From the IMG/VR virus record IMGVR_UViG_3300017917_003521: a DNA stretch of 61,745 bases; one strand, given 5' to 3'. Numbering within the stretch: the first letter of the stretch is position 1; each line of letters opens with the position of its first letter. Source of the stretch: a virus (lineage: Duplodnaviria; Heunggongvirae; Uroviricota; Caudoviricetes). The position numbers and the translations under genes are program-made. Shown here piece by piece: positions 53,318 to 54,844 of the stretch. The notes below the pieces were generated by a model that saw nothing but the letters and a program-made list of their open reading frames with translations, was not told the DNA's origin and searched no databases.

Positions 53318-53807
53318 TTTTTTAACACAAGATGAGTGTAGTTTATTAATAGGACTTGGTGAGTCTGGTGCTTTGAATTTTGGAAAAACTAATGGTGATA
53401 AACTAGGTTATAGAAAAGCAAAGGTTACTTGGTTTGATTTAAATAATCAATTTGTAAATAATATAAAATCAAAAATATCAGAGTTATCTGGATTACCTAT
53501 TGAGAATCAAGAAAAGTTTCACTTTGTAAAATATAATGTAAGTGGTGAATATAAGATACATCATGATGGATTAAATAGACAAAAAACAGCTGTTATTTAT
53601 CTTAATGATGGATTTCAAGGTGGTGAAACTGTATTTCCTAAAGTAGATAGAGTTGTTAAACCAGAAACAGGTAAATTAGTTATTTGGAACAACTATGATG
53701 AAGATGGTTTAAAAATAGAAGAAAGTCGACATGCTGGTCTACCAGTAGATTTTGGAACCAAATACATAGCAGTTATTTGGATAAGAAATACTAAATATGA
53801 GGAATAA
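53298..53807 (+). CDS. 2OG-Fe(II) oxygenase (prolyl-4-hydroxylase-like)
   Basis: HHD, YLND...GGET.FP, HAGLPV..G.K. Confidence 0.9.
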   Translation: MIAEYHNFLTQDECSLLIGLGESGALNFGKTNGDKLGYRKAKVTWFDLNNQFVNNIKSKISELSGLPIENQEKFHFVKYNVSGEYKIHHDGLNRQKTAVIYLNDGFQGGETVFPKVDRVVKPETGKLVIWNNYDEDGLKIEESRHAGLPVDFGTKYIAVIWIRNTKYEE

Positions 53808-54550: not shown

Positions 54551-54581
54551 TTTGACAATTAAAAAAGTTTTACTATCTTTG
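54551..54581 (+). promoter_or_regulatory. Bacteroidota-type promoter TTTG-N19-TATCTTTG driving the tRNA
   Basis: TTTG at 54551-54554, TATCTTTG at 54574-54581. Confidence 0.8.
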
Positions 54582-54591
54582 TAAAACAATT

Positions 54592-54671
54592 GCGGGTAGA
54601 GTCTAATGCGGCGTGGAAGTCGCGGGCGCCTCTAAAACGTCTGGCACCGGGTTCAAATCCTGCTATCCGCA
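54592..54671 (+). tRNA. Atypical tRNA with anticodon CUA (amber suppressor-like)
   Basis: Acceptor GCGGGTAG/CTATCCGC, D arm GCGGC-GTGGAA-GTCGC, anticodon loop CT-CTA-AA (CTA at 54632-54634), T arm CGGG-TTCAAAT-CCTG; no encoded CCA. Confidence 0.8.
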
Positions 54672-54673
54672 CT

Positions 54674-54844
54674 ATGAAATATCTTTTTATCTTAGTTGTT
54701 ATTCTCGCTTCTTGTAAAACACAGAAAGCCGGGTGTGACGCTTATTCAAGTAATAGCAGCGACACAACTTATATTTCAACTAATCATTATCACATTGAAT
54801 CTGAACATAAATGTATTTGGATTGATACAACTGTTAGAAAATGA
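54674..54844 (+). CDS. Small lipoprotein (start reassigned, after the tRNA)
   Basis: MKYLFILVVILASC lipobox. Confidence 0.72.
   Translation: MKYLFILVVILASCKTQKAGCDAYSSNSSDTTYISTNHYHIESEHKCIWIDTTVRK

Follow-up and report, generated by a model that had tools for sequence, protein, structure and literature searches.

Positions 54592 to 54671 of the plus strand encode an 80-nt non-canonical tRNA with the anticodon CUA, recognized by covariation, by homologues found with a covariance model (R1) and by a score, below the cut-off, to the Rfam tRNA family RF00005. We consider this RNA likely to be a functional phage amber suppressor whose main clients are probably a few genes that begin with an early TAG codon, although its processing, charging and suppressing activity are all inferred. 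The window, by which we mean the whole stretch of DNA analysed, is 61.7 kb long with 29.5% GC and belongs to a phage akin to huge phages of 634 and 642 kb. Two of these, the uncultured phages LR745206 (634,780 bp) and LR756502 (642,428 bp), are ~69% identical to the window region; genomes of 634 and 642 kb have been placed in the Mahaphage clade, with Bacteroidetes predicted as hosts (PMC7162821). Two further relatives are a 476-kb IMG/VR contig, IMGVR_UViG_3300032236_002285 (G001), which matches about half of the window at ~80% identity in collinear blocks, and a 385-kb genome (G003).

Structure of the tRNA and its conservation

The tRNA gene stands out at 60% GC from surroundings of ~30%. 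Its acceptor stem is 8 bp long (GCGGGUAG/CUAUCCGC, 54592-54599 with 54663-54670) and is followed by an 8-nt connector, AGUCUAAU (54600-54607), and by a D hairpin with a 5-bp stem, GCGGC/GUCGC, and the loop GUGGAA (54608-54623). The anticodon arm (54624-54642) consists of a 5-bp stem, a C38.A46 mismatch and the loop CUCUAAA, in which the anticodon CTA (54632-54634) is flanked by U33-like and A37-like positions. A 5-nt variable region (54643-54647) leads to the T arm (54648-54662), whose 4-bp stem, CGGG/CCUG, carries the loop UUCAAAU. The discriminator is A54671 and is followed on the same strand by CTA, the final A of which (54674) opens the ATG of the next ORF. An extra 3-bp helix joins connector residues G10-U11-C12 (54601-54603) to variable-loop residues G52-G53-C54 (54643-54645), and because of this helix the comparative evidence describes a five-helix RNA rather than a plain cloverleaf. 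The hallmarks of a tRNA are nonetheless present: the anticodon loop has 7 nt, with U33 and a purine in position 37; the T loop is of the form UUCRANY; the D loop contains GG; and the acceptor and T stems stack to 12 bp.

Most of this architecture had been proposed in a first-pass annotation made without database searches. Its 8-bp acceptor and 4-bp T stems held on both sequence and covariation, as did the C-A mismatch ending the anticodon stem, the CU-CUA-AA loop and the replacement of CCA by CTA. The connector, given as 7-8 nt, is 8 nt, and the D stem, given as 5-6 bp, is 5 bp and not 6. A suggested pairing of GTCTA with TGGCAC held only in part, the three pairs named above being all that is supported, and a likeness to tRNA-Pyl extends no further than the generic loop sequence.

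Standard tools perform poorly here. ARAGORN at default settings misses the gene, finding 0 tRNA genes in the whole window, and reports a CTA tRNA at the locus only once its threshold is lowered to 80% (-ps80). An Rfam scan of the window gave no family at its gathering score; the best family at the locus is RF00005 with 20.9 bits and an E-value of 0.04 in a 251-nt search, against a gathering threshold of 29 bits. The folding energy of the single sequence does not differ significantly from that of shuffled versions (z = -1.47). As the finders, the Rfam cut-off and single-sequence folding are all weak, the case for a tRNA rests on comparison with its relatives.

Three IMG/VR contigs and 12 metagenome contigs yielded close homologues in exact-pattern scans. 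When the anticodon was left free, a metagenome scan returned 120 loci, 12 of them true homologues, and every one of the 12 had CTA; the 107 loci with other anticodons and one further CTA match (L180) were rejected as random non-tRNA matches, most of them in contigs of higher GC. Among 11 distinct close sequences, 100% of stem cells are paired, with compensatory changes at 4-76 and 17-32. BLAST contributed little, since against a phage collection it matched only the T arms of ordinary tRNAs, and a short-word search of the tRNA against the syntenic region of LR745206 returned nothing. The covariance model later detected a homologue in that same region (46.6 bits) and another at the syntenic site of LR756502 (49 bits); E-values of homologues found with this model range from 1e-9 to 1e-26. 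These two diverged copies are ~60% identical to the window tRNA; compensatory changes have remade their D, anticodon and T stems, and CUA is still kept. The anticodon CUA and discriminator A recur in 15 of 15 huge-phage homologues, from two lineages of ~60% mutual identity. A freely varying anticodon among homologues, which the first-pass annotation had named as grounds for refuting its reading, is not seen in huge phages; the anticodon CCA appears outside them.

Covariation supports the fold in detail. Across 13 sequences, 11 pairs are changed on both sides, a value that neither shuffled alignments nor slid registers ever reach, and the acceptor, D and T stems are paired in 100% of cells. By pair counts, all stem substitutions preserve pairing. 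RNAalifold, applied to an independent MAFFT alignment of 9 diverse homologues, recovered the 8/4 fold; compensatory changes are seen at 14 of its 22 pairs. In all, 17 sequences from three lineages support the 8/4 branch, the connector, the D hairpin, the anticodon stem and the 3-bp connector:variable helix. Within this set the eighth acceptor pair varies (G-C, U-A or G.U), and extending the T stem to a fifth pair instead would mean C.C, U.C or A.C in the window's family. The 8-nt connector ends in an invariant CUAAU; the D-like hairpin has 5 bp and a loop of 5-6 nt containing GG; and the 5-bp anticodon stem, topped by an invariant G.U, adjoins the D hairpin directly. The position closing the anticodon loop is non-standard in 16 of the 17 (C.A, A.C or C.C) and U.G in the remaining one (L194). 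The variable region measures 5-6 nt, and the 4-bp T stem carries a UUCRANU loop. In the connector:variable helix, pair 10-54 is GC or UA with 1 mismatch and pair 12-52 is CG with 1 mismatch; the middle pair, 11-53, takes the forms UA, UG, AU, GC and CG without a single mismatch in the 17.

Looser patterns revealed the same fold in four unrelated phage contigs of higher GC (42-57%; L194, L228, L229 and L231), where it carries the anticodon CCA, a discriminator G and an encoded CCA end, and scores 52-61 bits to model R1. These members share with the window tRNA the 8/4 branch, the CUAAU connector, the 3-bp helix, the 5-bp D hairpin with GG and the top G.U. They sit in tRNA arrays in which ARAGORN counts 2 to 25 tRNAs and no tRNA-Trp, so they appear to occupy the tryptophan slot. 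By analogy with these CCA/G73 versions, with their encoded CCA ends and places in phage tRNA arrays, the fold should be usable in translation. The suppressor differs from them at position 35 (U for C) and at the discriminator, position 73 (A for G), and it appears to belong to a phage-borne family of Trp-type non-canonical tRNAs and looks Trp-derived. Which way the CCA/CUA change went is unresolved, however, because the distances among the three clades are all much alike (58-65% identity). No member of the fold turned up in two pattern scans of 185,579 species genomes.

Other tRNAs came to light in these contigs. One (L226:10722-10802) combines the 8/4 branch and CUAAU connector with a D stem of 3 bp, a loop of 11 nt, the anticodon UUU and a discriminator U, and is possibly a Lys-type member. 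A near-canonical tRNA with the anticodon CUA (L229:187-260) lies in the same array as an odd-fold tRNA-Trp (L229:2175-2253). Six contigs (L222-L225, L227 and L230), five of them from metagenome 3300045988, hold a near-identical, canonical-looking tRNA with the loop CUCUAAC (anticodon CUA) and a U1-A72-type end, which could, judging by its sequence, be another phage amber suppressor unrelated to the odd fold.

The odd form is missing from G003. Its syntenic site, bounded by homologues of the window genes at 53807 and 54841, holds instead a canonical 73-nt tRNA(CUA) that has A73, shares the loop CUCUAAA and the CTAA trailer with the window tRNA, and is preceded by a TAnnTTTG box at an unchanged distance. 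We take this canonical orthologue as strong, if indirect, evidence that a working amber suppressor is maintained at this locus in the phage group; there are no suppression data.

Inferred transcription, maturation and charging

Upstream of the tRNA on the plus strand lies a Bacteroidota-type promoter (54551-54581), made up of TTTG (54551-54554), a 19-nt spacer and TATCTTTG (54574-54581), which ends 10 nt before the tRNA. The TAnnTTTG box is found 9-10 nt upstream in every homologue, those of LR745206 and LR756502 and the canonical gene of G003 included. A scan for sigma-70-type promoters also lists TTGACA/TATCTT, of which TTGACA is not kept in relatives. A host-type promoter of the tRNA's own, as the first-pass annotation had proposed, is thus conserved in all relatives, and the leader left for RNase P is estimated at ~5 nt instead of the ~6 nt suggested there.

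Only 2 nt beyond the discriminator begins a small ORF of 56 aa, signal-peptide- or lipoprotein-like (54674-54844, plus strand; MKYLFILVVILASC...), and no terminator-like site was found between 54300 and 55000. Since the next ATG is so close, the tRNA likely heads a polycistronic RNA on which it is co-transcribed with this ORF, an inference from the arrangement. The 56-aa ORF is present in some relatives and absent from G001, L004, L119, L161 and L163, where the next gene directly follows the tRNA (in G001, right after the tRNA and its CTA); in several relatives the next ORF is 14-17 nt away. The window tRNA does not encode CCA, and a CCA-adding-type enzyme is present in 4 of 4 large relatives.

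The amino acid that the tRNA carries cannot be read from its sequence, as had been recognized at the outset, and a similarity comparison with the phage's own 53 tRNAs gave no clear identity. Glutamine is our best guess, one we hold only tentatively and would not be surprised to see overturned, as there are no charging data. Recoded phages read TAG as Gln, as does su7, a suppressor derived from tRNA-Trp, which favours Gln. G001 has a genuine phage GlnRS (L237:1396-3054, or G001:272250-273908; TIGR00440, 668 bits) directly after three tRNA-Gln genes, all of which have U1-A72 and A73; the A73 shared with the suppressor also favours Gln. Against it, the suppressor has G1-C72 where the phage's own tRNA-Gln genes have U1-A72, and G1-C72, C2-G71 and A73 do not match the identity set of E. 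coli GlnRS. Tryptophan is an unlikely choice on textbook grounds, the main identity elements of bacterial TrpRS being C35 and G73, both of which are changed in the suppressor. Counted on the side of Gln, with the GlnRS of G001, are two class-Ic synthetases in each of the four large relatives; an enzyme of the TyrRS/TrpRS type passes its family cut-off only in LR756502. Pyrrolysine was rejected for want of a PylRS, the best score to TIGR02367 in the four relatives being 36.6 bits against a cut-off of 178, and because the tRNA core is different.

The large relatives hold other features of interest to translation. Small frames of 174-178 aa with an RF-1 domain are found in LR756502 (L248, 107309-107629) and LR745206 (L249, 48139-48459), and not in G001 or G003; from their size we would guess that they might be a peptidyl-tRNA hydrolase of the ArfB type. 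In G001, at 218-222, 230-234, 255-259, 271-273 and 385-387 kb, class-I isoacceptors for Lys, Glu, Asn, Ile, Thr, Met and Gln come in two forms, of ~73 nt and of 83-88 nt (for example L027:2489-2576 and G001:272129-272211). The long tRNA-Gln(UUG) has a hairpin in its variable region, and it is possible, as inferred from sequence, that the long forms are class-I tRNAs with long variable arms.

A probable TAG-gated locus and the genetic code of the phage

Some 5 kb downstream of the tRNA lies a conserved locus comprising a leader peptide and two genes, one Pth2-like and one HD, all three of which start ATG-(1-2 codons)-TAG-ATT. The leader ORF (59969-60013, plus strand) reads ATG ATG TAG ATT ... 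CCT CCG TAA, or M-M-UAG-INTYRILERPP-stop, and its frame beyond the TAG (I-x-T-Y-...-P-P-stop) is kept in L195, G003, LR745206 and LR756502. Overlapping its end on the same strand is a long terminator hairpin with a U tract (60005-60078), which folds at -38.9 kcal/mol (z = -8.66; none of 200 shuffles folds as well). The base of the hairpin's 5' arm is formed by the leader's Pro-Pro-stop codons, and UAG readthrough should therefore oppose termination. The leader ORF is likely both a client and a sensor of the suppressor; this is inferred, without readthrough data.

The Pth2-like ORF follows (60100-60462, plus strand; ~120 codons), opening ATG AAA AAC TAG ATT; over 85 codons it offers no alternative ATG, GTG or TTG start. 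Its TAG-ATT is kept in five homologues of 96, 86, 77, 62 and 56% protein identity. The Pth2 assignment itself is weak, at 20.1 bits to Pfam PTH2 (cut-off 23) and 21.9 bits to TIGR00283. The three best matches in a PDB profile search are all Pth2 (2zv3 at an E-value of 0.0014); the AlphaFold model is poor (pLDDT 61), and its top Foldseek match is the Pth2 structure 2zv3 at an E-value of only 0.07, leaving the fold unconfirmed. The HD-domain ORF (61146-61733, plus strand; Pfam HD, 22.1 bits) opens ATG TTG TAG ATT and has an in-frame ATG 9 codons downstream. Its start is kept as ATG TTG TAG ATT in G003 and as ATG AAT ACT TAG ATT in LR745206. Altogether three ORFs open with ATG-x(-x)-TAG-ATT, a start conserved over five or six phages, and initiation at the AUU is not excluded for these three starts.

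Together with a 231-aa ORF, the leader, Pth2-like and HD genes form what looks like a portable module (window 59928-61744; order leader, Pth2-like, 231-aa, HD). It recurs at 89% identity between unrelated flanks in a fragment, G002 (71887-73722), which has nothing else in common with the window, so that the missing tRNA there is uninformative. In G003 (242.4-244.0 kb), LR745206 (338 kb) and LR756502 (212 kb) a long distance separates the module from the tRNA locus. Four genomes have both the locus and a tRNA(CUA), namely those of the window, G003, LR745206 and LR756502. G001, 97% complete by CheckV estimate, is the exception, having kept the tRNA without the gated locus or any convincing TAG-dependent gene. 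The idea put forward in the first-pass annotation, that the tRNA is the key to TAG-gated genes at 60-61.7 kb, is thus supported by the conserved TAG-ATT starts and by co-occurrence, with G001 standing apart.

Also in G001, a small basic ORF resembling histone H1/Hc1 (L046:19643-19831, ~119.6-119.8 kb of G001) is preceded by ATG ACA AAG TAA. Its TAA ending means that short ATG-led upstream frames arise without TAG as well.

Outside this locus, UAG behaves as a stop. ORFs of at least 100 aa in the standard code span ~58 of the window's 61.7 kb, and TAG ends 5 of 87 such ORFs; in G003 it ends 28 of 276 long ORFs. A genome not recoded at TAG, as had first been claimed, therefore held up on dense standard-code coding and on the presence of TAG among the normal stops, and two relatives are alike in this. 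Searches of G001 and G003 for internal TAG produced no convincing case. All candidates in G003 lay opposite longer ORFs and were rejected, and those for TAG-dependent genes in G001 were set aside as antisense shadows, adjacent in-frame genes, genes with a normal start nearby or motifs inside another frame. A tandem-stop test for adaptation to suppression gave no signal.

Proposed mechanism, rival explanations and known systems

We propose a model in which host RNA polymerase starts at the tRNA's own Bacteroidota-type promoter and makes a polycistronic RNA headed by the tRNA. RNase P would remove the ~5-nt leader, the 8+4 acceptor/T stack retaining the standard 12 bp, a 3' endonuclease would cut past A73, and a CCA-adding enzyme of host or phage would finish the end. 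Once charged by an unidentified synthetase, the suppressor would compete with RF1 at UAG, its clients being the genes of the conserved locus that begin ATG-(1-2 codons)-UAG-AUU. Readthrough in the leader would bring the ribosome into the 5' arm of the terminator and so open transcription of the Pth2-like and HD genes, each of which would need UAG readthrough once more, at codon 3 or 4.

That the RNA is a dedicated amber suppressor, as the first-pass annotation had it, is supported by comparative evidence, namely the invariant CUA of huge phages and the canonical orthologue of G003, and by no experimental data. A point against is that TAG is an ordinary stop in 5-10% of phage genes, and an efficient suppressor would extend those proteins. 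A bolder reading would make the RNA an undescribed five-helix tRNA architecture, used both as tRNA-Trp and as a regulatory amber suppressor that serves as the trans-acting key of a leader/terminator/Pth2-like/HD switch. We lean slightly against it.

The rival that survives best accepts a working suppressor and denies that the ATG-x-TAG-ATT genes are its clients, these starting instead at AUU or by termination and reinitiation after a mini-ORF of 2-3 codons. The tRNA might then provide general UAG readthrough in host or phage, interfere with competing elements or be a neutral first step to recoding. In its favour, the tRNA of G001 stands without the locus, every TAG is followed by ATT, as expected if this were a start codon, and the gated locus acts as a separate module in varied genomic contexts. 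Moreover, TAG is the rarest stop here, and the acquisition of suppressors by standard-code phages ahead of recoding has been described (Borges et al. preprint, 10.1101/2021.08.26.457843). Against it, an in-frame ATG lies 2-3 codons before the TAG in 13 of 13 instances, although the intervening codons vary, and AUU initiation is very rare. All four genomes open to a complete search for the two features have both, and the short ATG-led upstream frames of G001 end far more often in TAA (15) than in TAG (6), no other recurring TAG motif having been found. We regard this reading as unlikely.

A second alternative is that the RNA is tRNA-like and does not decode, acting as a 5' processing or stability element for the downstream mRNA, or as a decoy or spare part against host defences that cleave tRNA. 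The next ATG only 2-3 nt past the discriminator in the window and G001, the absence of a terminator after the tRNA, and a non-canonical core scoring below the tRNA cut-off would all fit such a role, and irregular 8/4 tRNA-like RNAs have been found uncharged by the E. coli enzymes tested or unused in E. coli translation (Mukai et al., PMC5389517). A processing signal, however, needs no invariant CUA loop, T loop or D-loop GG across lineages ~60% identical. G003 has a fully canonical tRNA(CUA) in the equivalent position, the CCA versions lie in tRNA arrays with encoded CCA ends, and in several relatives the next ORF is 14-17 nt off, which makes this alternative very unlikely. Finally, a decaying pseudogene or chance tRNA-like fold, suggested by the failure of default finders and the weak folding z-score, is all but excluded by ~98% identity to the G001 gene between flanks of only ~80%, by stem substitutions that keep their pairs, by the conserved promoter and by covariance-model E-values down to 1e-26.

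The suppressor we favour resembles those of recoded phages (crAss-like, Lak, Agate and others; code 15, TAG = Gln) in being a tRNA(CUA) encoded by a low-GC phage and expressed from standard-code DNA, with Mahaphage relatives predicted on Bacteroidetes (PMC7162821). The standard code and rare TAG stops of the window fit the pre-recoding stage proposed for such phages (10.1101/2021.08.26.457843). Unlike in recoded phages, UAG is met only at codon 3-4 of the leader and two genes, not throughout late genes, and the fold, unlike that of their suppressors, is non-canonical and escapes tRNA finders.

The 8/4 division of a 12-bp acceptor/T branch is shared with 8/4 tRNAs and allo-tRNAs. Such tRNAs, for Ser and His, are known from phage tRNA clusters, along with irregular forms carrying extra sequence between acceptor and D arms (Mukai et al., PMC5389517). 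Unlike allo-tRNAs, the window tRNA has neither a long variable arm nor a tRNA-Sec-like D arm of 6 bp and 4 nt, and unlike 8/4 tRNAs it has an 8-nt CUAAU connector that pairs with a short variable loop. Members of the fold are Trp (CCA) and amber (CUA), and tryptophan is not mentioned in the main text of PMC5389517. Compared with tRNA-Sec, it has CUA, an 8/4 branch and a short variable region in place of UCA, 8/5 (in bacteria) and a long variable arm. With tRNA-Pyl it shares the anticodon CUA, the loop CUCUAAA and an extended anticodon stem. In tRNA-Pyl, however, the connector is 1 nt, the variable loop 3 nt and the D loop small, and G18G19 and the T-loop motifs are lacking, whereas the window tRNA has an 8-nt connector, a 5-nt variable region, D-loop GG and UUCAAAU.

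Escherichia coli su7 (supU) is an amber suppressor that arose from tRNA-Trp by a C35-to-U change, kept G73 and its canonical fold, and is charged mostly with Gln. Like su7, the window tRNA has an anticodon one base from the Trp CCA, and its closest structural relatives are tRNA-Trp genes; unlike in su7, the discriminator has changed as well, to A, and for this reason the charging enzyme cannot be inferred from su7.

Taken together, the comparisons describe a new structural variant within phage suppressor tRNAs and 8/4 tRNAs, probably with a regulatory use distinct from genome-wide recoding, for which there is no experimental evidence. Functional-looking phage tRNAs, suppressors included, can evidently escape standard tRNA finders; suppressors have been found in only 35-40% of recoded phages, and missed tRNAs were suspected (Borges et al. 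preprint, 10.1101/2021.08.26.457843). The amino acid inserted at UAG becomes testable with one 80-nt gene and a defined context, UAG-AUU-A. Should a dedicated enzyme charge the suppressor, its scaffold may be orthogonal to host synthetases and thus of interest for genetic-code expansion.

The use we suggest is that, in a standard-code genome, a few genes and a transcription attenuator are keyed to one tRNA. If the bolder reading is true, stop-codon suppression would here be a gene-specific regulatory signal and not genome-wide recoding. The phage may also offer a direct view of the step before recoding in the Lak/Mahaphage lineage.
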